From: a virus
IMG/VR virus record: IMGVR_UViG_3300042555_002918
Location: 1 to 64,000 of that record
Strand: one strand, 5' to 3'
Length of the DNA: 64,000 nt
Shown here: positions 1,040 through 19,257 of the stretch, piece after piece
Layout of the letters: each line of letters begins with the position of its first letter
Position numbering within the stretch: the stretch's first letter is position 1
The notes under the pieces: model-generated
Seen by the model: the letters and a program-made list of their open reading frames with translations, nothing else
Told to the model about the DNA's origin: nothing
Database searches by the model: none
Position numbers and translations under genes: made by a program

Positions 1040-4000
1040 ATGTCAAATTTTTTCAAAACTAAAATTGCCGGAGAGCAAATTCTCGATGGCGCAGTAAAAC
1101 GTCAAAATCTCGAAACATCTATCGTTTCAGACATTGACACACTCAAGGAGAACGATGTCACTAAAGCGGGAGATATCGCTCAGCTACAGACCGACCTCAC
1201 CGCTGAGGAGACCGCTCGTGTTTCAGGCGATACCGCTCTTGGTATTCGTGTCGATGGAGTCGAGGGAGATCTTAGCGCCGAGGTTACCCGAGCTCAGGCT
1301 GCTGAGGCTCAGGTTCTTTCCGATGCAAATAGCTATACAGACACGAAGGTTGCTGACCTTGTTAATTCGGCTCCAGCAGTTCTTGATACACTCAAAGAAC
1401 TTAGCGATGCCTTAGGCTCCGATCCATCATTCGCAACTACCGTTGCTAACAACATCGGTGAAGTGGCTGCTGACATCGCCGCTGAGGAGACTCGCGCTCT
1501 CGCTGCTGAAGGAGTTCTCCAAGGAAACATCGACGCTGAAGAGACTCGTGCTGTCGCTGCTGAGGGAGTCATCGCTTCCGATCTCGCTGCTGAGGTAACT
1601 CGCGCTACCGGCGTAGAGGCTGATCTCGCTTCCGACATTGCGGCTGAAGAGACCCGTGCTCTTGCTGCTGAGGCAGGACTTGCCTCCGACATCACTGCTG
1701 AGGTAACTCGTGCTCAAGGCGCCGAGACCCAACTTTCTAACAGCATTTCATCTGAGGTAACTCGTGCTCAAGGTGCTGAGGCTGATCTCGCTTCGGATAT
1801 CAGTGCTGAAGAATCCCGTGCAATGGCCGCCGAAGGAGCTCTTGGAGTTCGCATTGACGAAGTAGAATCCGACATCGCTGCTGAAGAGACTCGTGCTGTC
1901 GCTGCTGAGGGAGTTATCGCTTCCGATCTCGCTGCTGAGGTAACTCGCGCTACCGGCGTTGAGGCTGGACTTGCTTCAGACATCGCTGCTGAAGAGACCC
2001 GTGCTCTTGCTGCTGAGGCTGATCTCGCTTCAGACATCGCTGCTGAGGTAACTCGCGCTCAAGGCGTAGAAGCCGGACTCGCTTCCGACATCGCAGATGA
2101 AGAGACTCGTGCTCTCGCTGCTGAAGGCGCTCTTTCGAGTCGTCTTAATGTCCTTGAGCAGGATCCAACCACAAAGACCTATGTAGACCAACAGGTTGCG
2201 GGTCTGGTTGACTCTGCCCCAGAGGTTTTAAACACCCTTAAAGAGCTTGCTGATGCAATTGGCGCAGACGCAAACTTTTCAGCCACAATATCTGGAATGG
2301 TAGGCGAAGTAGCATCTGACCTTGCTGCTGAAGAGACCCGTGCCCTCGCTGCTGAGGCTGATCTCGCTTCTGACCTTGCCGCCGAGGTGACTCGTGCTCA
2401 AGGTGCTGAGGCTGATCTCGCTTCCGACATTGCGGCTGAAGAGACTCGTGCTGTCGCTGCTGAGGGAGTTATCGCTTCCGATCTCGCTGCTGAGGTAACT
2501 CGCGCTACCGGCGTAGAGGCTGATCTCGCTTCCGACATCGCGGCTGAAGAGACCCGTGCTCTTGCTGCTGAAGGCGCTCTTGGAGTTCGAATTGATGCAG
2601 TTGAAGCAGATATCGCTGCAGAGGAAACTCGTGCTCTCGCTGCTGAGGCCGATCTCGCTTCCGACATCGCTGCTGAAGAGACCCGTGCTGTCGCTGCTGA
2701 GGCCGGACTCGCTTCTGACATCACTGCTGAGGAAACTCGTGCTCTCGCTGCTGAGGCTGCTATTGCTGCGGACCTCATATCAGAGACCAGCAACCGCGAA
2801 ACCGCCGATTTAGCTCTTGGAGTCAGAATCGACGGCGTTGAAGCAGATCTGGCTGCTGAGGTTACAGATCGAACAAGCGCAGATAGCGCCCTTTCGACTC
2901 GTATCTCTGCACTTGAGGCAGATGCAACAACTAAGAGCTACGTAGATCAAAAGTTTGCTGAGGTAGTTGATAATGCTCCTGCGGTACTCGATACACTTAA
3001 CGAGCTGGCTCAGGCAATAGGCGACGATCCTGCATTTATTACGAACATCAGCTCAACCATCGATGCAGTAGAAGCAAGCGTAAGTGCTGAGGTAACTCGC
3101 GCTCAAGGCGTTGAGGCTGGACTTGCTTCAGACATCGCTGCTGAAGAGACCCGTGCTCTTGCTGCTGAGGCTGGACTTGCTTCCGACATCGCAGATGAAG
3201 AGACTCGTGCTCTCGCTGCTGAGGCTGGACTTGCTTCAGACATCGCTGGCATTGACAGTCGTGTTACAACTCTTGAGGAAAGTGCTTATATAATTCGAGA
3301 AGTTCCATCAGGACTTATCAATGGCACTAACACCGTCTTCCAACTTGATTCTGTTCCTTCCACGGGAACCGAGCAGGTATATTTGAACGGTCTTCTTCAA
3401 GAGGCTGGCGCTTCTGGTGACTACACGATCTCAGGAGACACTATTACGTTTGGTGTAGCCCCAAGCACCGGATATTCTTTGGTAGTCAGCTATGTGACTG
3501 GAGCCCCAGTCTTTAACAGCGTAGGTTCTGGAAGTTCTTCTGGATTCAGTGGTGATTACAACGACCTGGTCAACAAGCCTAGCTTGTTTAGCGGCTCCTA
3601 CACGGACCTTTCAAACAAGCCACAATTGTTTAGTGGTTCTTATACGGACCTCTCAGACAAGCCAAGTTTGTTCAGTGGAGATTACAATGACCTGATCAAC
3701 AAGCCTACAATCCCAAGTCTCACATCGGTTGAGTCGCGAATCTCCTCATTGGAAGCTGACGCTACGACTAAGACCTATGTAGACCAACAGGTTAGTGGTC
3801 TTGTGAACTCGGCTCCTGCAGTTCTTGATACTCTCAAAGAGCTTGCTGATGCTTTGGGATCCGATCCAGCTTTTGCGACAACGGTCTCAAATTCGATTGG
3901 TGCGATTTCAAGCCGAGTTACTTCACTTGAGAGCGTTACTCTTGCTAGCGTAGCTACAAGCGGTTCGTATGCAGATCTGACAAATAAGCCAACTTTGTTT

Positions 4001-5176
4001 AGCGGAGCTTACGCTGACCTAACTGGCACCCCGTCCTTGGCTAGCGTAGCTACAAGCGGTTCGTATGCAGATCTGACAAATAAACCAACTTTGTTTAGCG
4101 GTTCGTATGCAGATCTGACAAATAAGCCAACTTTGTTTAGCGGAGCTTACGCTGACCTAACTGGCAAGCCTTCTTTAGCTAGCGTAGCTACAAGCGGTTC
4201 GTATGCTGACCTCAGTAACAAGCCAACTCTTGCAAGTTTTACGACATTAACTTCACCAGCTTCGGGTCATCATTTAAGATACAACGGAACTTCTTGGGTT
4301 AATGCTGCTATTCCTGCATCCGACTTACCTGTAGCTCAACAAAGCTCTGGAATTATTGACACTGGGTTTCAGATATTCTCTGGTGACAAACGATTCAATG
4401 GCATTATTCAAGCATATGGTGGAGTTGCGGCTAAAGCACCTGCTATCAATCAGCCTGCACTTCGTGTTCAACCAGCCGGAGTATCGCAAAGTATTCCACT
4501 CATCTACCTGGAAAACACTTCGGGCGGTGGAGCATTTACTGTCAGCACATCTGGTGCAACAACAATTGCTCTTGCCAGCGCAAGTGCAAAAGGCATGGTC
4601 ATTACGGCTGCTGCTTCACAAACAGGGAACTTGTTTGAGGTGCAAAACAGTGCGGGAACTGCGAAGACTAGCATCACAAAAGATGGTACGATCGTATTGA
4701 ACGCACTTGGCAACACTACAACCTATGGAATTGGAGTAAGTTACGACTTAAATGGCGGAACCTGCTTGTCCATTCAGCACTCGGGAACTGCTGGTCGGTT
4801 TTTGGCGTCATTCTATAATTCAGCTGCACAGATGGTGGGGTCTATTACCCACGATGGTTCAACTACATCATATGCAACGACCTCTGACCACCGCCTCAAG
4901 GAAAATTTTGTTCCTCTGACCGGTGCTCTTGATAGAGTTGGTAGTTTGCCAATCTACCGTTTCAATTTCAAAGCTAATCCAAGCAAAGTAGTTGATGGAT
5001 GTAAGGCACATGAAGTTGCTGCGGTTTGTCCAGAGGCAGTAAATGGGGATAAAGATGCTACAGATGCTGATGGGGGAATTATTCCTCAGTCAGTTGACTA
5101 TAGTAAGTTAATCCCACTTCTCGTCGCATCAATTCAGGAGCTTAAGGCTAAAGTTGCCGCTCTTGAGAGTAAGTAA
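1040..5176 (+). CDS. Long tail fibre with C-terminal intramolecular chaperone (peptidase S74-like)
   Basis: 18-aa coiled-coil repeats, four SAP..LDTLKELADA.G.D modules, SGSYADLTNKP repeats, C-terminal TTSDHRLKEN...VDYSKLIPLLVASIQEL autocleaving-chaperone signature. Confidence 0.85.
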   Translation: MSNFFKTKIAGEQILDGAVKRQNLETSIVSDIDTLKENDVTKAGDIAQLQTDLTAEETARVSGDTALGIRVDGVEGDLSAEVTRAQAAEAQVLSDANSYTDTKVADLVNSAPAVLDTLKELSDALGSDPSFATTVANNIGEVAADIAAEETRALAAEGVLQGNIDAEETRAVAAEGVIASDLAAEVTRATGVEADLASDIAAEETRALAAEAGLASDITAEVTRAQGAETQLSNSISSEVTRAQGAEADLASDISAEESRAMAAEGALGVRIDEVESDIAAEETRAVAAEGVIASDLAAEVTRATGVEAGLASDIAAEETRALAAEADLASDIAAEVTRAQGVEAGLASDIADEETRALAAEGALSSRLNVLEQDPTTKTYVDQQVAGLVDSAPEVLNTLKELADAIGADANFSATISGMVGEVASDLAAEETRALAAEADLASDLAAEVTRAQGAEADLASDIAAEETRAVAAEGVIASDLAAEVTRATGVEADLASDIAAEETRALAAEGALGVRIDAVEADIAAEETRALAAEADLASDIAAEETRAVAAEAGLASDITAEETRALAAEAAIAADLISETSNRETADLALGVRIDGVEADLAAEVTDRTSADSALSTRISALEADATTKSYVDQKFAEVVDNAPAVLDTLNELAQAIGDDPAFITNISSTIDAVEASVSAEVTRAQGVEAGLASDIAAEETRALAAEAGLASDIADEETRALAAEAGLASDIAGIDSRVTTLEESAYIIREVPSGLINGTNTVFQLDSVPSTGTEQVYLNGLLQEAGASGDYTISGDTITFGVAPSTGYSLVVSYVTGAPVFNSVGSGSSSGFSGDYNDLVNKPSLFSGSYTDLSNKPQLFSGSYTDLSDKPSLFSGDYNDLINKPTIPSLTSVESRISSLEADATTKTYVDQQVSGLVNSAPAVLDTLKELADALGSDPAFATTVSNSIGAISSRVTSLESVTLASVATSGSYADLTNKPTLFSGAYADLTGTPSLASVATSGSYADLTNKPTLFSGSYADLTNKPTLFSGAYADLTGKPSLASVATSGSYADLSNKPTLASFTTLTSPASGHHLRYNGTSWVNAAIPASDLPVAQQSSGIIDTGFQIFSGDKRFNGIIQAYGGVAAKAPAINQPALRVQPAGVSQSIPLIYLENTSGGGAFTVSTSGATTIALASASAKGMVITAAASQTGNLFEVQNSAGTAKTSITKDGTIVLNALGNTTTYGIGVSYDLNGGTCLSIQHSGTAGRFLASFYNSAAQMVGSITHDGSTTSYATTSDHRLKENFVPLTGALDRVGSLPIYRFNFKANPSKVVDGCKAHEVAAVCPEAVNGDKDATDADGGIIPQSVDYSKLIPLLVASIQELKAKVAALESK

Positions 5177-6646: not shown

Positions 6647-7153
6647 ATGAAGTACTTTCAGTATCTTCCTACATTTGATTACTCCAACCTCACTGTAACC
6701 AACATTCTTGCGCGGGCAAAAGTGCGAGAGTTTGTACTGAACAATGCATCTGTTTATTACAAACATCGCATTGCCGACGGAGAGCGCCCAGATATTCTGG
6801 CTAGCAAATATTACGGAAACTCCAACTATACCTGGCTTATTTTTTACGCCAACGACATCTTTGACCCGATATTTGACTGGCCTTTGACTGGAGATGCACT
6901 TGAGGCGCACATGTCCAACACCGTTGGGTCACTTGAAGTAGCTCAACAGACCCCACATCACTACTTGCTGGACGGTCAATATATAATTGACCGAGAGACA
7001 TACATGGACATAAACCTCCCGGCCAACCGAAAGAGGGTAGTCTCTGTCTATGAACATCATGTGAATGAGAACGAAAAGAAGAGAGAGATCAAGCTTATTG
7101 ACCAAGCGTACGTGCGACAGATCGTAAACGAGATGCAGAGGTTATTCATCTAG
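6647..7153 (+). CDS. gp53: Baseplate wedge subunit, gp53-like
   Basis: MKYF..LP, GERPDILA.KYYG....WLI..AN.I.DP..DWP, NE.KR.I.LI. Confidence 0.9.
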   Translation: MKYFQYLPTFDYSNLTVTNILARAKVREFVLNNASVYYKHRIADGERPDILASKYYGNSNYTWLIFYANDIFDPIFDWPLTGDALEAHMSNTVGSLEVAQQTPHHYLLDGQYIIDRETYMDINLPANRKRVVSVYEHHVNENEKKREIKLIDQAYVRQIVNEMQRLFI

Positions 7154-7159
7154 GGGTTT

Positions 7160-8554
7160 ATGTCTGATACTAGCCTTAGTCCAGAAGTCCTTCGTAGGGA
7201 ACGAGACTACTACATTAACTACCTGAAAATTGTCGCCTACAATGGCAAAGAGTACTCTATCGCGTCTCAAATGATAGAGTTTACTTTTCACGAAAACATT
7301 GCGACCCCGTGCGTTTACTGTTCAGTTACTCTGTACGATGCGGTTGACTTCCCCACTCTTCTTCCAATGATTGGCGAAGAGCGCCTTAAAGTTAGCTTTA
7401 CCCGACAAGATGAACACGCAGCAAAAAATGAGGGAGGATTTAAGAAGCCAATCGTTCTCGACATGCCCATCTATAAGATATCAGGTAGGTCACCGGAGAA
7501 CACAAGCAGAAAGGGGCAGGTTTACACTCTTCACGCCACTTCGGATGAGATGCTTCAGTCACTGAAAAGCAAAGTACGCCTAGGCCTTAAAGGAATGACC
7601 TACTCGGAGATGGTCGACAAGGTGTTTAACGAATACGTAAAGGTTTCAAAACCCGTTGAGGTTGAACCTACAAAGCACCTCCACGATTTCTGCATATCAA
7701 ACATGAACCCATTTAGGTTTATTACGCATGTGTCGGGCAAATCAATCAGTCCGAAATACGGAGGATGCCTGTACTTTTTCTATGAGGACCGAGACAAATT
7801 CAACTACAAGAGCCTAGGAAGCCTCTTCGAGGGGAATAAGAGCCTAGACATAAACTTTGCGGTAAAAAACACCCTCAAGCAGGGAGGAGATAAGGCTGGT
7901 CCAAAGGAACGCATATTTGAAAGGGACATGTATGCAGTTGAGGCTCTTGAGCATAAGGGCAGTTTTGACCTGATTAAAACTATTGTGTCAGGCGGCTACT
8001 CCCAAAAAGCGATTTTTTTCGACCCAGTTCGGCAACTTATAACAACTAAAGACTTTGACATTGAACAGGAATGGGACTCCTTACCCCATATCGATAAGGT
8101 AAAGCCATTCACAGAAGGCAACAAAGCAAAGGCGGCCCCCGATTCACGAATAACAGTCCAATGGACGAACGCCGAGCACGACAGTGTTGAGCATATTTCA
8201 GGGAAAGAGCCAGGTATTAACCCGTTTAGAGCGGAAGATTTCAGCCTTCGGGTAAACGCTCAGATGGACGGAATGATCAGAAACTCCATTGACGTGGTTA
8301 TACCCGGAACACCCGATTTGGTGGCAGGGCAAGTCATTAACTTTCACCTACCAGAGCACCTAGGAAAAGTCAGTAAAGAAGAGCCCGAGGAACCTGACGC
8401 ATATCTGCAGGGTAAATACCTTGTAGTCAGCGTGATGCATCGACTCTCAACTACAGAGTACACGTGCAGTGCAACTATAGTTAAGGACTCCTTCTACTCG
8501 AACATCAAACATCGCAACCCCGAGGAAGAGTACCCAATCAATAAGATTTACTAA
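7160..8554 (+). CDS. Baseplate hub / tail protein (gp27-like)
   Basis: LP.IGEE.L...F, FFYE....F..KSL, IPG..L.AG..I.F, G.YLV..V.H; synteny in baseplate module. Confidence 0.65.
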   Translation: MSDTSLSPEVLRRERDYYINYLKIVAYNGKEYSIASQMIEFTFHENIATPCVYCSVTLYDAVDFPTLLPMIGEERLKVSFTRQDEHAAKNEGGFKKPIVLDMPIYKISGRSPENTSRKGQVYTLHATSDEMLQSLKSKVRLGLKGMTYSEMVDKVFNEYVKVSKPVEVEPTKHLHDFCISNMNPFRFITHVSGKSISPKYGGCLYFFYEDRDKFNYKSLGSLFEGNKSLDINFAVKNTLKQGGDKAGPKERIFERDMYAVEALEHKGSFDLIKTIVSGGYSQKAIFFDPVRQLITTKDFDIEQEWDSLPHIDKVKPFTEGNKAKAAPDSRITVQWTNAEHDSVEHISGKEPGINPFRAEDFSLRVNAQMDGMIRNSIDVVIPGTPDLVAGQVINFHLPEHLGKVSKEEPEEPDAYLQGKYLVVSVMHRLSTTEYTCSATIVKDSFYSNIKHRNPEEEYPINKIY

Positions 8555-9216
8555 TGACGGATTTACGAGACACCAAACGAAAGAAGTCAGCCCGGTCTCC
8601 GGAGGATATCTTCGAGATAGGTATCCAGGAAGCTCAGACTGCCGGAGTCTTCCGTAAACGCACCCAGAGCGCAATTAAATGGTACCTTGGCCTAATCCGC
8701 CGCCTTGCCCCATCCCCAATCAACAGGGCAGGATTTACCAAACGAGAGCGGCTTCAGCAGGGACTGCGCTTCGGGAGCCTCTACTGCTACGTGTATGACG
8801 CAAAAACTAAAGACGACCTACCATACTGGGATAGGTTTCCATTGGTATTCCCGATAACCCCTACAAAGAATGGAAATGGCTGGTACGGCCTTAACTTACA
8901 CTACGTTCCACTCGAATACCGGGCAAAACTTCTATCTGTGCTCTATCGCGTAGCAAACAATAAGCGATACGACGAGACAACCAAATTGAAGCTCTCATAC
9001 GAATATTTGAAAGACCTAGGCGGGATGAACAAAGCCTTGGCTATGGTTGCCTTCAAGCAATACCTAACAAGCCACGTCCGAAGCCGTTTCATTTATATCA
9101 CCCCGGATGAGTGGCCCATCGCCTTATTTCTACCCATGGAACAGTGGCAAAAGAAGAGCTTTGGGGAGGTCAATTTTGACATACAGGGCCAGATTAAACG
9201 GCTCAGGGATAAATAG
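8554..9216 (+). CDS. gp2: DNA end protector, gp2-like
   Basis: G.LY.Y.YDAK.K..LPYWDRFPLVF, GLNLHY.P..R, K.YL..HVRS, W..A..LP. Confidence 0.9.
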   Translation: MTDLRDTKRKKSARSPEDIFEIGIQEAQTAGVFRKRTQSAIKWYLGLIRRLAPSPINRAGFTKRERLQQGLRFGSLYCYVYDAKTKDDLPYWDRFPLVFPITPTKNGNGWYGLNLHYVPLEYRAKLLSVLYRVANNKRYDETTKLKLSYEYLKDLGGMNKALAMVAFKQYLTSHVRSRFIYITPDEWPIALFLPMEQWQKKSFGEVNFDIQGQIKRLRDK

Positions 9217-9223
9217 TCAGTAT

Positions 9224-9877
9224 ATGCCTATCTCAATCGACATTCTGAAAGCGGCTCTTGACCTGGGAAATGGTCCTACCATGGCATCCCAGTTCCAGGT
9301 CATTTTTAGCCTACCCTCGGCACTTAGAACAGGAAGCGAGGGATTTAACTCTACTTCACTTTCGATTCTTTGTCAGAGTGCTACCTTGCCAGGAACCCAA
9401 GTAGCAACAACCGAGCTTCCGGTTTATGGACCAGGAGTAAAAATGCCATATGGCCTGATTTATCAGGACTTGAACATCACCTTCCTGTGTACCAATTCAA
9501 TGGCACAGAGGAAGATATTTGAGGAGTGGCGCCGGATTATAATCGACCCCACGTCAAACTACGTAAATTACTACGATACATATGTAGGAGAGATACTTGT
9601 ACAGAAGCTGAATCAAAGTGGCCAAGCATCACATAGCGTGCTCTATGAAGAGGCTTTCCCTATTGCCATTTATGAACAAGAGCTTGCCTCTACCAATAAC
9701 GATTGGTTGAAGTTATCCGTACAGTTCTCTTATAGACGATGGAGAACCAAACTGGATCTCACTGCTGCATCAACGGCGGGTTTTGGATCTGTAGAGATAC
9801 CCGAGGCGCCGGGTGAAGTTGGTAATCCAAGTGACATATTTAAAAACACACCAGTACCAAAGGTACCTAGTTTTTAG
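9224..9877 (+). CDS. gp54: Baseplate tail-tube initiator (gp54-like, tube fold)
   Basis: LC..ATLPG, K.PY...Y..L..TF, FE.W, EAFP, L.V.FSYR.W. Start moved to ATG 9224, just after late promoter ATAAATA. Confidence 0.75.
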   Translation: MPISIDILKAALDLGNGPTMASQFQVIFSLPSALRTGSEGFNSTSLSILCQSATLPGTQVATTELPVYGPGVKMPYGLIYQDLNITFLCTNSMAQRKIFEEWRRIIIDPTSNYVNYYDTYVGEILVQKLNQSGQASHSVLYEEAFPIAIYEQELASTNNDWLKLSVQFSYRRWRTKLDLTAASTAGFGSVEIPEAPGEVGNPSDIFKNTPVPKVPSF

Positions 9878-9900: not shown

Positions 9901-10641
9901 ATGCAACGGATAACCCCAATCGTACATCCAACATTCGAAATTGCCATTCCATCATCAGGAAAGAAAGTCACTTCTCGCCCTATCGTTACACGAGAGCGAA
10001 AAGCTCTCCTTACCGCCCTACAATCTGCAGACAGTGTAACAATAGGCCGAAGCGTCAAAGACATTATTAAGTCATGTGTAAACGACATCACGGTTGATGA
10101 CCTGACCACTTTTGACTTCGAATGGATCTTCCTACAACTAATTATCAATTCAATAAAAGAAACGCTCGACTTGGAGGTACGTATTCCGAACCGCGAGGAA
10201 GAGTGCCAGGAGTGTGGGCGTACTCGAATCATGAGAGTAAATTTACGAGACGCGCAAGTTGAGGGAATCAAGCGAGAAAAATCAGACTTTTTGATTGAAA
10301 TCTCTGCTGGAGTCGGCTTGAAGCTGCGGTATCCAACGGAGAAGACACTAGAGGCCCTAGCAGAAAACTCGACCAACAAGAGTCACATAGAGAAATTAAC
10401 GGACCTTATTGCTCTATCTATAGAATCGGTATTTGACGAGTCAGGAACAAAGCTGTTTTCTGAATTTGATTATAAGTCTCAGATTGAATTTTTGGACTCA
10501 CTCCCAATACCGGTAACGGATAGGTTAGAGGCATTTGTTGAATCAGTTCCGAGAGTTGAATTGAATGTGGTCGTAGAGTGCCCCAAGTGCAAATTCAAAG
10601 CCTATCATCAGATGTCGGGGCTAGCTGATTTTTTCGTCTGA
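9901..10641 (+). CDS. gp26: Baseplate hub assembly chaperone, gp26-like
   Basis: PTFE..IPSSGKKV..RP...E.K.LL, L..FD.E.IFL.L...S..E, L.YP, C-terminal CPKC...GLADFF. Confidence 0.85.
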   Translation: MQRITPIVHPTFEIAIPSSGKKVTSRPIVTRERKALLTALQSADSVTIGRSVKDIIKSCVNDITVDDLTTFDFEWIFLQLIINSIKETLDLEVRIPNREEECQECGRTRIMRVNLRDAQVEGIKREKSDFLIEISAGVGLKLRYPTEKTLEALAENSTNKSHIEKLTDLIALSIESVFDESGTKLFSEFDYKSQIEFLDSLPIPVTDRLEAFVESVPRVELNVVVECPKCKFKAYHQMSGLADFFV

Positions 10642-10664
10642 CGCTAGGTGATGAAAACCTAGCG
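10629..10664 (+). promoter_or_regulatory. Putative programmed -1 ribosomal frameshift signal
   Basis: T TTT TTC heptamer 10629-10635, 6-nt spacer, perfect hairpin cgctaggt-gatgaaa-acctagcg 10642-10664. Confidence 0.7.
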
Positions 10665-10811
10665 GGATACTACAGCGTTTGCTTCGACCTAATGCATATT
10701 CACAAATGGAGTCTTTATGACATTGAGAATATGTACCCATACGAGCTAGAGGCCTACAAGATAATGCTACTGAACCACCTAAGCGATTTGAAGAAGAGCT
10801 CACAGCGATAA
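10629..10811 (+). CDS. gp51: gp51-like hub assembly catalyst frame (not in ORF track), probably reached by -1 frameshift from gp26
   Basis: Manual translation FFRLTLGDENLAGYYSVCFDLMHIHKWSLYDIENMYPYELEAYKIMLLNHLSDLKKSSQR* resembles gp51. No ATG before the conserved ENL..YY block. Confidence 0.75.
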   Translation, partial: FFRLTLGDENLAGYYSVCFDLMHIHKWSLYDIENMYPYELEAYKIMLLNHLSDLKKSSQR

Positions 10812-10814
10812 ACT

Positions 10815-13289
10815 ATGGATACCAAAAAAGCATCTGCCGAGAACAGGGCATATTTCGAGTTCATTGATGAGCTTAGAAAGAGTTCACGCCAGGATTCACC
10901 TACCGCTGAAATTTCCAGGATGTATAAGGAGGTTGCCGACATCCTCGCTGAAGCATTTGACGAGTTTAACCCAGAAGACCTCCCTAAATATCAAGATAGA
11001 CTTGAAGGCATCATTAACCTTCAGGAGACTCAGCCCTCTCTGTCAGATCCTCTTTTCAAGGAAGATATTCAAAAAGCCAAAGCCCTTCTTGACCAAAAAG
11101 TAAGGCAGAGGTTTGGTGCCATCCAAAAGATCTCAAGGATTGCCTCGGGTACGCTCCGTACTTTTGGGGATATAAGCTCTCATGTACGAGATTTCATTTC
11201 TATTGGTGACCAATCCGCCGATGCTGGAAGAAGGTTTAGTCAGATAAATTTCGGATTTGGTAAAAGGCGTCTGGACCCGGAAGAAGAACGTCGACAGTAC
11301 GATATCCTTAAGGGAAATGATTCACCTGAAGGGACCAATCAGCCAAACATTCAAACTCCCGTCCCCCTTAACAGCTCAACTATTGGTAATGGCAAACAGA
11401 TCTTGCCAGTCAAAGATGACAAGCTGATCGGGACTAACACCCAACAGAACAAGGTACTGTTACAGCTCTTTCACGTCACAAAGGATTCAAACTCTGACAT
11501 CAAGCAAATTAAGGCCCTGATTAAGGCGGATACGGCAAAAGCTGCAAAGATACGCAACAAAGACGAACTGAATCAAAAAGAAGATAAACAGGAAGCTAAA
11601 GCGTCGGTAAAGCCAACAGATAAGGGAATACTTACTGACTTGGTTTCAATTTTCGGCGGAAGGCAAGCTTCCAGTGATTCTCCAAGCGAACAGGCCGCAC
11701 CAACAACACTGCCGCAGGATACCACGGGGCTACTTGGAAGGGTTGGGGTAATCACATCGGCATTACTCTCCAAAACCGCTGGCGTACTAGGAGGAACGAT
11801 ACTGGGCGGCGTAGGTGGAAGTAACTTTTGGGGACCAAAAGCTAAGCCAATAAGGAGCAAGATCCAGTCAGCCGCAAACAAAACAGGAGAGATGATCAGA
11901 GGAGAGGACTACTATAAAGACCTCCTTCAATCACAGAGTCATGATCTCATGTCTCAGGACAAAGCTGAAGAGGCGGCCCTCGCGTACCTTGAAAAGATTG
12001 CCAAGCAGAAAAGGGACCTGTGGAGAAAGGCTTTTAGTAATGGTTCGCGGTTTGGTGATGGTAGCTACACCATGGGCGGTAAACCTTTGGATATTGACGA
12101 GGCAGTCGCAGACGCCCAAGGCGCTGAGGAAAAGGCAAAAGAGTACAAAGCGTATATCGAGGCAAAGAGAAAGAAAAACCATAATTTGTCATCAACTGCC
12201 AAGTTTAATCTTGATGGAAAGGAGTATAGGAATCCTATCTACTCAGAACAGGAAAGAAGCAAGATTGATGAGTCAAATAGGACCGTTCCGAATGACGGTG
12301 GATTGTTCGATTCTGAAAACTTTTGGTCCAGTGTATACGAAAAAGGTATGGGGCTGTTTTCTTCTCGGTCGTCAGACAATACAAGTGACGGAGAAGAACT
12401 TTCAGCAGACGTTTCAACACTCAATCAAGGTCAAAACTCACAACTAAACTTTTCCCAAGGCGGACCTGGGCTATTATCAGCTAAAGAGACCTCAGGGAGA
12501 GAGAAGGTTGGCGCAACAAGTGTACCCAAAGACGAACTAGATACGGTGATGCGAGGAATTGCAGCAGCCGAGACCGGTCCAGTAACTGATGACAGAGACC
12601 TTAACGACAGAACTCGGGCTATACGGACAACGGGAGGGGCAAATTCCAGTGCTTATGGTAGTTATCAGATTACCTATCGCCTTGCTAAAGCACATTTGGA
12701 AAAAGGATTATTCGATAGCGACCCGGAGCTAAAGAAGTGGACAAAAGAGCGATTTGTGCCACATGGAAAGAAGCTACTTAAATCCTCATATAGCGACCCC
12801 CAATACGGTGCTGGCGGAGAGGGAGACCTCAACGGCGACAAGGACCGTGAAATGTATCAGAAAATGTCCCGAGCAATCATCGGGGAGAACTACGCTCGAA
12901 ACAAGGGAGACATGCTCTCGGTACTGGGGGAGCATAGATTTGGTCAGTCTGAGAGGCATAAGTTGCTTCAGGCAGATCCTCAATATGCACAAAGAGCCAT
13001 GGCTCAATGGAAGAAGGATCAGCAGACTATGATGGCTAGTGCCAACCAGAAGGCCAATGTGAATCCTGTTTCACAAGCTGGTACCCAAGTTGCGCTCAAT
13101 CAGCTTTCGAAGGAACAGGAAGCCGCTCGCTCGGCCCCAATAGTTGTTGCCGTGCCTGCCCCACAGCCAGTTTCGCATCAGACCCAACCGGCAGGTGGAG
13201 TATCCACTAAGTCATTTGGAGCTTCCCCAAATGGGGCCTCAGACTCTAGCTTGATGCTTGGGATACGCCAGTCTGTCTCTCCAATCTAA
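10815..13289 (+). CDS. Tape-measure / hub protein with lysozyme-like domain
   Basis: Long helical low-complexity protein directly after gp26/gp51; IAAAETG...SSAYGSYQIT lysozyme-superfamily-like motif. Confidence 0.6.
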   Translation: MDTKKASAENRAYFEFIDELRKSSRQDSPTAEISRMYKEVADILAEAFDEFNPEDLPKYQDRLEGIINLQETQPSLSDPLFKEDIQKAKALLDQKVRQRFGAIQKISRIASGTLRTFGDISSHVRDFISIGDQSADAGRRFSQINFGFGKRRLDPEEERRQYDILKGNDSPEGTNQPNIQTPVPLNSSTIGNGKQILPVKDDKLIGTNTQQNKVLLQLFHVTKDSNSDIKQIKALIKADTAKAAKIRNKDELNQKEDKQEAKASVKPTDKGILTDLVSIFGGRQASSDSPSEQAAPTTLPQDTTGLLGRVGVITSALLSKTAGVLGGTILGGVGGSNFWGPKAKPIRSKIQSAANKTGEMIRGEDYYKDLLQSQSHDLMSQDKAEEAALAYLEKIAKQKRDLWRKAFSNGSRFGDGSYTMGGKPLDIDEAVADAQGAEEKAKEYKAYIEAKRKKNHNLSSTAKFNLDGKEYRNPIYSEQERSKIDESNRTVPNDGGLFDSENFWSSVYEKGMGLFSSRSSDNTSDGEELSADVSTLNQGQNSQLNFSQGGPGLLSAKETSGREKVGATSVPKDELDTVMRGIAAAETGPVTDDRDLNDRTRAIRTTGGANSSAYGSYQITYRLAKAHLEKGLFDSDPELKKWTKERFVPHGKKLLKSSYSDPQYGAGGEGDLNGDKDREMYQKMSRAIIGENYARNKGDMLSVLGEHRFGQSERHKLLQADPQYAQRAMAQWKKDQQTMMASANQKANVNPVSQAGTQVALNQLSKEQEAARSAPIVVAVPAPQPVSHQTQPAGGVSTKSFGASPNGASDSSLMLGIRQSVSPI

Positions 13290-17183: not shown

Positions 17184-17759
17184 ATGACTTGTGTAGTTGG
17201 ACTCATTACAGACTCAGGATTGATGTTTGGGGCTGATTCTTTGGTAACTACGGAGTCGGGCTCCAAGATAACCCTCCTCGATAAGAAAGTCTTTGTTAAG
17301 AACAACATGATCTTTGGATTTTGCGGAGACCTGCGCTTTGGTCAGCTGATAAAGCATCGATTCAACCCTCCCTCTCCTGGGCGCAATAAAGACATTGAAC
17401 TGTTCATACATACCAAATTCATTCCCGACCTTCAGAAATTCTTCATGGACTTGGGGTTCTCAAAATTAGAGCCAGGCTCCTTTGACTTGATGGTTGGGGT
17501 GCATCGAAGCATCTTTACTGTCTCAGATGACCTAGCTGTAGTTGAGACCCCAGCTAGGTATCAGGCGATAGGCAGCGGGGCCGACTACGCTCTCGGGGTT
17601 ATGTACGCCACGAAGTCAATTTCAAGCCCAACCCAGCGGATAACTCTTGCCCTTGAAGCTTCAAGTCAGTTTTGCCAGACGGTATCAAAGCCGTTCAATT
17701 TTGAGTTTTTGCCGTCATCAACAAAGCGACAGGTCAGCCCCAGAAGGGGTAAGCGGTAA
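17184..17759 (+). CDS. Ntn-hydrolase, HslV/proteasome-beta-like protease
   Basis: MTC start (Thr nucleophile), GADS, K at conserved position, AIGSG.DYALG. Confidence 0.8.
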   Translation: MTCVVGLITDSGLMFGADSLVTTESGSKITLLDKKVFVKNNMIFGFCGDLRFGQLIKHRFNPPSPGRNKDIELFIHTKFIPDLQKFFMDLGFSKLEPGSFDLMVGVHRSIFTVSDDLAVVETPARYQAIGSGADYALGVMYATKSISSPTQRITLALEASSQFCQTVSKPFNFEFLPSSTKRQVSPRRGKR

Positions 17760-18699: not shown

Positions 18700-19257
18700 T
18701 TACGTTCGAACCGTAGCTTGAGGGGCTACCGAGTCAACCGCAAAGGTTACCTGGAATCGCTCAATTTGATTCGAAGCCTCCCATCCAAGGGTGATCTCCG
18801 ATACGTTAGTTGGGAAGATTCCCATACATTTCCAGGTCTTAATTAACGACTCATCCTGACCATATTGATGAATCATCGCCTGAGACTTGTATTGCGAAGG
18901 ACGGCTAGTGAACCCGCTATTTCGAACGTTATCGACGGGCTCGTTCAAAGCAGCAAGCCACGCAATGAACGCATCATAGACGGCGAAATCCTCATCATTG
19001 ATCACTTCGATTGTCCAGGGCGAGTATGTTCTGTTTCCGGAGAAGTTCACCGAACGTCCCTGAAAGAATACCGGTATTGCATCTACCGTTGAGGCTGGGA
19101 TCTGGGTAGCCGTAGCCTTAACCGGCACATCTCGTGAGAAGTTTGAGCCTGATGAGTTGATGAGCGATATAGGGAGAGACATCTCAACTTGAAAGAGATG
19201 AGGTCGTGCGCCGCCGTAGCGCATGGTCTCTGTAAATTCGTCGATTTTAAATGTCAT
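18700..19257 (-). CDS. gp19: Tail tube protein
   Basis: GGARP.LF.V, A..IPAS.V..I.V.F.GR...GNRT...WT..VINDEDF, FPT.VS.I.L. Confidence 0.93.
   Translation of the reverse strand: MTFKIDEFTETMRYGGARPHLFQVEMSLPISLINSSGSNFSRDVPVKATATQIPASTVDAIPVFFQGRSVNFSGNRTYSPWTIEVINDEDFAVYDAFIAWLAALNEPVDNVRNSGFTSRPSQYKSQAMIHQYGQDESLIKTWKCMGIFPTNVSEITLGWEASNQIERFQVTFAVDSVAPQATVRT

Follow-up and report, generated by a model that had tools for sequence, protein, structure and literature searches.

Tail assembly chaperones (TACs) of long-tailed phages are reportedly made in two forms by a conserved -1 frameshift, with gpG and gpGT of phage lambda as the model, and this is said to go back to work of Levin et al. in 1993 and of Xu, Hendrix and Duda in 2004 (Mol Cell 16:11). 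Here we describe a gp26-like gene in the genome of an uncultured freshwater T4-like phage (IMG/VR record IMGVR_UViG_3300042555_002918), of which the first 64,000 nucleotides form the stretch that was analyzed, hereafter the window. The virus record itself is complete, with 145,388 bp and terminal repeats. At the 3' end of the gp26-like gene a slippery heptamer, a hairpin and a -1 frame encoding a gp51-like peptide lie together. Judging from the sequence we regard it as highly probable that ribosomes slip by -1 on U_UUU_UUC, by which a minor form of 303 aa would be produced beside the major form of 246 aa.

As far as its title and two later articles (PMC10885494, PMC12846349) convey, the TAC genes of T4-like phages were identified by Vladimirov, Gautam and Davidson (2022, Virology 566:9-15, doi 10.1016/j.virol.2021.11.003). 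Citing that study, PMC12846349 mentions that the TAC-N genes of T4-like phages contain poly-T slippery sequences, and according to PMC10885494 it describes that in some of these phages a short gene together with a fused long gene takes the place of frameshifting. The title of the 2022 study stresses a route other than frameshifting, which PMC10885494 takes to mean separate genes. T4 gp26 and gp51 are listed as hub assembly chaperones (Leiman et al., 2010, PMC3004832). In cyanophages and marine vibriophages gp51 is without the first ~200 residues of T4 gp51, a difference for which no explanation was given, and cyanophage gp51 has about 20% of the T4 length (Sullivan et al., 2010, PMC3037559). 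A -1 frameshift that also involves UUU/UUC Phe codons is mentioned in PMC12846349 for gene 10A/10B of phage T7, where it concerns an unrelated capsid protein with another function.

The locus in the window resembles lambda G/GT in that a single gene is predicted to yield two forms through a -1 slip, with an X_XXY_YYZ heptamer close to its 3' end as the slip site, in its position between a tail-tube-family gene and a long open reading frame (ORF) at the tape-measure position, and in an N-terminal domain that is modelled with the TAC fold. It differs from lambda G in that no sequence similarity exists and in that its body is larger, with an extra domain of two Cys pairs after the TAC-like N-domain. 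Unlike in lambda, the heptamer is U_UUU_UUC and lies only one codon before the stop. With the published T4-like TACs the locus shares the family (gp26/gp51, PF12322), the chaperone role and the poly-T slip site, and judged by what the later articles tell of that study there is no difference in kind. What sets the window apart from them is its origin from an uncultured freshwater phage, a gp26 whose identity to the gp26 of isolates does not exceed 33%, and a junction without a start codon.

Results

The -1 frame opens at a slippery heptamer one codon before the gp26 stop

As read from the sequence, the gp26-like ORF ends with GAT TTT TTC GTC TGA, by which the heptamer T_TTT_TTC stands in the X_XXY_YYZ phase of the zero frame (Table 1). 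Just upstream of the heptamer the -1 frame is closed by a TGA (10626-10628), from 10629 on it is open, and it reads FF|RLTLGDENLAGYYSVCFDLM... over 58 codons. Joining of 9901-10635 to 10635-10808 gives a predicted long form of 245 + 58 = 303 aa, compared to 246 aa for the short form, and the expected junction peptide of the fusion is ...GLADFFRLTLGDENLAGYY. In the stem-loop that follows the heptamer, the arm CGCTAGGT (10642-10649) pairs with ACCTAGCG (10657-10664). A preliminary description of this DNA had named the heptamer, the 6-nt spacer, the 8-bp hairpin, the opening of the -1 frame at 10626 and the two product sizes, and all of these were correct when read against the sequence.

The first ATG of the -1 frame is located at 10692, 19 codons in, and the sole other candidate start is CTG 10638. 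Initiation at either codon was considered and rejected: the GGGG upstream of CTG 10638 is 17 nt away, too distant for a ribosome-binding site, and ATG 10692 has no Shine-Dalgarno sequence and would entail the loss of conserved residues.

A G-rich stretch that resembles a Shine-Dalgarno sequence (GGGG, GAGGA or GGAGGG) was seen 8-10 nt 5' of the heptamer in most lineages, at an invariant Gly codon (window and loci L001-L025). It may stimulate the slip as in dnaX, or may merely reflect the conserved Gly residue.

The heptamer and the -1 gp51 frame are conserved across T4-like phages

In tblastn searches a gp26 homologue was detected in 571 phage genome records, all at less than 60% identity (best 33%). 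The gp51-like peptide was detected in 536 records, with nearly all alignments starting at query residue 1 and overlapping the annotated end of gp26. Loci of relatives were fetched from GenBank (15 diverse loci) and IMG/VR, 23 in all. When the 3' ends of gp26 were aligned across T4-like phages, a comparison that had been outlined in the preliminary description, 16 of 17 relatives showed T_TTT_TT(C/T/G) 0-2 codons before the gp26 stop together with a gp51 frame that is -1 and open through the heptamer. The same arrangement was present in all five further IMG/VR loci, by which the site is documented 22 times (window and 21 relatives) in about a dozen lineages. These comprise Kyanoviridae, Schizotequatrovirus, Angelvirus, Pootjesviridae, Emdodecavirus, Busanvirus, Menderavirus and uncultured IMG/VR phages. 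Among the carriers are Aeromonas phage PX29, Rhizobium phage Y68, Sinorhizobium phage phiM7, Acidovorax phage ACP17, Stenotrophomonas phage Yut2, Xanthomonas phage BUDD and Methylophilales phage Melnitz as well as cyanophages and vibriophages. The read-out after the shift, FFRL(T/M/I)L..., is conserved.

GC-rich phages that prefer TTC and GAC retain GAT TTT at the site. In a synonymous test, local codon usage was used to calculate how probable it is, given the amino acids, to find TTT as the first Phe codon after a codon with T in its last position. In six TTC/GAC-preferring lineages (Y68, K491, ACP17, phiM7, BUDD, Yut2) P was 0.04-0.20 per locus. Over the window and the loci of 16 relatives the summed log10 P was -9.7, which is an upper bound on the significance as the loci are related; with one locus per lineage P was still about 1e-7.

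About half of the loci have no ATG, GTG or TTG within ~15 nt of the junction, namely the window, L006, L020, L023 and L024 as well as MbCM1, ACG-2014j, Melnitz, ACP17 and BUDD. In three GenBank records (Synechococcus phages metaG-MbCM1 and ACG-2014j and Acidovorax phage ACP17; L008, L009 and L012) the gp51 stretch, situated between gp26 and the following gene, is unannotated. The first in-frame start of these three was seen 18-51 nt or more 3' of the gp26 stop. A joined coding sequence was marked in none of the 16 annotated GenBank records examined.

The extension is selected in the -1 frame and the hairpin arms are conserved

Compared with the loci L006 and L007, whose gp26 is 80% identical, 26 of 32 substitutions in 10635-10808 fell on third positions of the -1 frame. 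The same bias was found upstream of the first ATG, with five of seven substitutions relative to L006, and the other two frames of the extension are full of stops. The L006 variant was also found in a lake metagenome contig.

In the 80% relative the hairpin arms agree at 15 of 16 nt, and in L020, the gp26 of which is 52% identical, at 16 of 16 nt. In both comparisons no change is seen at any of the six third codon positions of the arms, compared to 27/52 and 19/52 unchanged elsewhere in the extension. This conservation of the arms points to selection on the RNA itself. In most lineages stem-loops of differing sequence are situated 1-7 nt after the heptamer, with z-scores of -4.3 in P-SSM2, -4.4 in AG-345-L05, -3.3 in ACG-2014j and -2.8 in S-CRM01.

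The two frames encode gp26- and gp51-family domains

The gp26-like ORF matched PF12322 (T4_baseplate) with an E-value of 6.8e-42 and 144 bits (cut-off 24.5) and phrog_150 ('baseplate hub') with 3.1e-44. The -1 peptide matched phrog_634 ('baseplate hub assembly catalyst', the gp51 family) with an E-value of 8.2e-17. That this peptide is conserved ahead of ATG 10692, as had been noticed before, was borne out, since both the phrog_634 match, which begins at residue 2 of the -1 peptide, and the third-position bias start upstream of that codon.

In the complete genome one PF12322 gene and one phrog_634 match were found. Therefore a separate gene for the long form is not present, and the long form would be made only via recoding. 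This genome thus does not show the T4-type layout of two separate paralogous genes and has the one-gene version instead. DNA near-identical to that of the window is present in lake-water metagenomes.

T4 gp51 is colinear with the predicted fusion

The two T4 genes are divergent, with gene 26 on the minus strand and gene 51 on the plus strand. Residues 1-201 of T4 gp51 (249 aa) belong to PF12322, the same family as gp26, and its C-terminus matches phrog_634. A direct BLASTP comparison of the 60-aa -1 peptide with T4 gp51 was not significant, and the link needed a profile and a multiple alignment. T4 gp51 and the reconstructed fusion of the window align colinearly through the junction (BLAST HSP 53-281, junction at ~residue 244 of the sequence as built), and the stretch of the window opposite T4 gp51 at the junction is ...ADFFRLTLGDENLAGYYSVCF.... 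By this alignment, T4 gp51 corresponds to the predicted long form with its two parts fused in frame.

T4 gp26 (208 aa) and gp51 are homologous to the proteins of the window, with PF12322 and the phrog_634 C-terminus in common. T4 differs in having two divergent genes and no heptamer, whereas the window has one gene with a -1 extension, the attachment of which is predicted. T4 gene 26 ends with GAG TTC TTT GAG TTA CTA TAA (7803-7835 of locus L005, minus strand), in which Phe-Phe is kept and the heptamer is broken; it is thus broken where a separate gene for the long form exists. The stop of T4 gene 26 was also seen to overlap the start of gene 25 (TAATG).

The short form's N-terminal domain resembles solved tail assembly chaperones

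The 246-aa protein was modelled with AlphaFold2 from a 24-sequence alignment, with a mean pLDDT of 87.9. With Foldseek no match in the PDB reached significance, and the HK97 TAC 2ob9 was the row of highest probability (E 0.7). In an exhaustive VIA-align comparison over 48,161 chains the top three rows all fell on model residues 1-94: 3fgx (Z 7.5, rmsd 3.5 over 84 residues), 3klu (Z 7.2, 4.6 over 85) and 2ob9 (Z 7.0, 4.6 over 84). Unrelated rows had a Z of 4.8 or less. All three structures are solved phage tail assembly chaperones (PMC9603447, citing Pell et al., 2013). The Z-scores are middling and the weight comes from the agreement of the three; a TAC fold of the gp26 N-domain is supported by this model.

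Ribosomal slippage weighed against other readings

Several observations weigh against ribosomal slippage at this site. A search of sequencing runs found no RNA run carrying the sequence. TTTTTTC occurs 13 times in the window, with 18.7 occurrences expected by chance. The heptamer by itself is not significant; its phase, its position and its conservation in relatives exceed chance. By energy alone the hairpin is unremarkable: 10625-10700 folds with -18.1 kcal/mol and a z of only -1.64, and the z values lie at -1.6 to -1.7. In four lineages a convincing hairpin was not found. One relative, Vibrio phage 1.255.O (L019, MG592621), is without the canonical heptamer, and a T-rich run is in part dictated by the conserved Phe-Phe residues. 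The preliminary description had placed the tape-measure gene directly downstream. An 824-aa ORF agrees with this by position and size, but BLASTP comparisons of it with T4 gp29 and with the downstream ORF of Aeromonas phage PX29 yielded no match. Finally, the synonymous selection for T would fit slippage of RNA polymerase equally well, and the protein would be identical.

In Vibrio phage 1.255.O the gp26 gene was seen to end with TCA CTT TTT CGC TAA (1755-1775), and the annotated gp51 start lies at an overlapping TAATG. A single-tRNA slip on U_UUU or coupled re-initiation could operate there, as far as this sequence suggests.

Slippage of RNA polymerase would add an extra U within the T6 run of some transcripts and lead to the same 303-aa fusion. 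The T run is homopolymeric, and in two lineages it is longer (T8 in Melnitz, T7 in phiM7), as this explanation would have it. For a polymerase to slip efficiently, a run usually has to be about 8-9 or longer, whereas 19 of the 22 sites have only six Ts followed by C, even in AT-rich genomes, and run length is not maximised. Moreover, the run always stands in the X_XXY_YYZ phase, and it is followed by a stem-loop at a spacing typical of ribosomal -1 sites and under synonymous constraint. Taking both sides into account, we consider polymerase slippage unlikely.

Translation of small gp51 as a separate peptide of ~40-60 aa that acts in trans, from ATG 10692, from CTG 10638 or through reinitiation after termination at the gp26 stop, appears very unlikely to us. 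The heptamer is kept at synonymous sites, which a separate gene does not need, and in T4 the domain forms one protein with a gp26-like body. Most GenBank records do annotate the small ORF separately, and in about half of the relatives an ATG, GTG or TTG within a few nt of the gp26 stop would allow translational coupling, but about ten loci are without such a nearby start. In the window the first canonical start has no Shine-Dalgarno sequence and would drop 19 conserved residues that are under purifying selection. A mere chance arrangement or a decaying remnant without function would agree with the chance-level count of the heptamer in the window, but it has to be set against the conservation of site, frame and peptide across about a dozen lineages and the purifying selection on the peptide, and we give it hardly any credence.

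Genes surrounding gp26

The positions of gp26, its predicted frameshift elements and the neighboring genes are given in Table 1. The neighbors fit a T4-like tail module, as judged from their sequences. Long ORFs follow gp51 in relatives too.

Table 1. Position of the gp26-like gene, the elements of the predicted frameshift and neighboring genes in the window.
Feature	Position	Strand	Remarks
gp53-like	6647-7153
Tail/hub protein	7160-8554
gp2 DNA end protector	8554-9216
Tail-tube-family gene (gp54/gp48-like)	9107-9877	+	PF23849 E 1.7e-08, phrog_45 E 9.1e-38; just 5' of gp26
gp26-like gene, short chaperone form (TAC-N), 246 aa	9901-10641	+	PF12322, phrog_150, AlphaFold2 model
GGGG, candidate Shine-Dalgarno-like upstream stimulator	10617-10620	+	8 nt before the heptamer
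Slippery heptamer T_TTT_TTC, X_XXY_YYZ phase of the zero frame	10629-10635	+	1 codon before the stop
Spacer, 6 nt	10636-10641	+	includes zero-frame stop TGA 10639-10641
Stem-loop, putative frameshift stimulator	10642-10664	+	perfect 8-bp stem, 7-nt loop
-1 extension, gp51-like C-terminal domain	10635-10811	+	58 codons and TAA 10809-10811
824-aa ORF at the tape-measure (T4 gp29) position	10815-13289	+	3 nt after the gp51 frame; position and size
gp32, gp59, PhoH, tail tube, sheath, large terminase	18700-19257 (tail tube)	opposite

The gp2-like ORF and the listed start of the tail-tube-family gene overlap by 110 nt. The match to the tube family begins at residue 40, and therefore the true start of this ORF is probably located further downstream.

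No Pfam or PHROG family matched the 824-aa ORF. It lies near lysozyme and lytic-transglycosylase atlas clusters (Phage_lysozyme2, SLT; 0.90-0.91), with structural rows at ~residues 550-740, which is a lead only, and it has a Gly-rich hydrophobic stretch at ~residues 305-340. A complex prediction of the gp51-like extension with the tail tube protein encoded on the minus strand (18703-19257) gave a score of 0.00, the partner being poorly folded, and counts neither for nor against such a complex.

Three further ORFs were observed elsewhere in the window. A 191-aa ORF (17184-17759) between PhoH and the tail tube and sheath genes matched the HslV-family peptidase phrog_1040 (E 1.2e-18). The tail-fibre protein of 1378 aa (1040-5176) has several internally repeated domains, with phrog_1197 in four stretches. 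The adjoining ORF of 301 aa (60-965) has phrog_13589 and a fibre C-terminal module in common with the fibre protein.

Discussion

The proposal that gp26 and gp51 are the equivalents of lambda G and GT in this phage, which goes back to the preliminary description, is supported by the conservation of the heptamer, the frame relation, relatives without a start codon, selection on the extension, colinearity with T4 gp51, the single gene in the complete genome and the TAC fold, all of which derive from sequence comparison and modelling. If ribosomal slippage occurs as predicted, the gp26-like gene would encode the short form of the tail assembly chaperone, and a fraction of the ribosomes would pause on U_UUU_UUC in front of the hairpin 6 nt downstream, possibly helped by the upstream G-rich stretch. 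After a backward slip of one base both Phe-tRNAs would re-pair on UUU UUU, and the ribosome would bypass the TGA at 10639 and add 58 residues, giving rise to the 303-aa long form. The C-terminal domain of this long form would correspond to the 'small gp51' of cyanophage-type T4-like phages. The short and the long form would then act jointly on the tape-measure or hub protein, their presumed binding partner, in assembly of the tail hub, as in the case of lambda gpG/gpGT. T4 itself produces both forms from two paralogous genes, with gene 26 encoding the short form and gene 51 the long form as an in-frame fusion.

The preliminary description knew of no earlier account of such an arrangement. This has to be corrected, as the TAC genes of T4-like phages had been identified by Vladimirov et al. 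(2022), to go by the later articles that refer to that work. The concept is already published, and the window is a further, clean example in an uncultured freshwater T4-like phage. It might be put forward that a G/GT-type -1 frameshift is ancestral in the T4 superfamily, that genes 26 and 51 of T4 are a derived hard-wiring of it and that the short gp51 of cyanophages is thereby explained. These points would be additions only if the 2022 study is without the heptamer and hairpin across cyanophage-, vibriophage- and rhizophage-type lineages, which we think doubtful. In the open literature searched, no report of experimental proof of the slip in any T4-like phage was found. The clade of the window, with no start codon at the junction and a strongly conserved hairpin, offers a convenient construct for a first experimental test.

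For the annotation of this group it follows from the predicted slip that the 'small gp51' ORFs in hundreds of genomes of cyanophages, vibriophages, Aeromonas phages and rhizophages are probably not separate genes, but most likely the frameshift extension of gp26. The T4 superfamily would thereby conform to what holds for long-tailed phages in general, namely that the chaperone is made in two forms, and the apparent exception of T4 would be explained.

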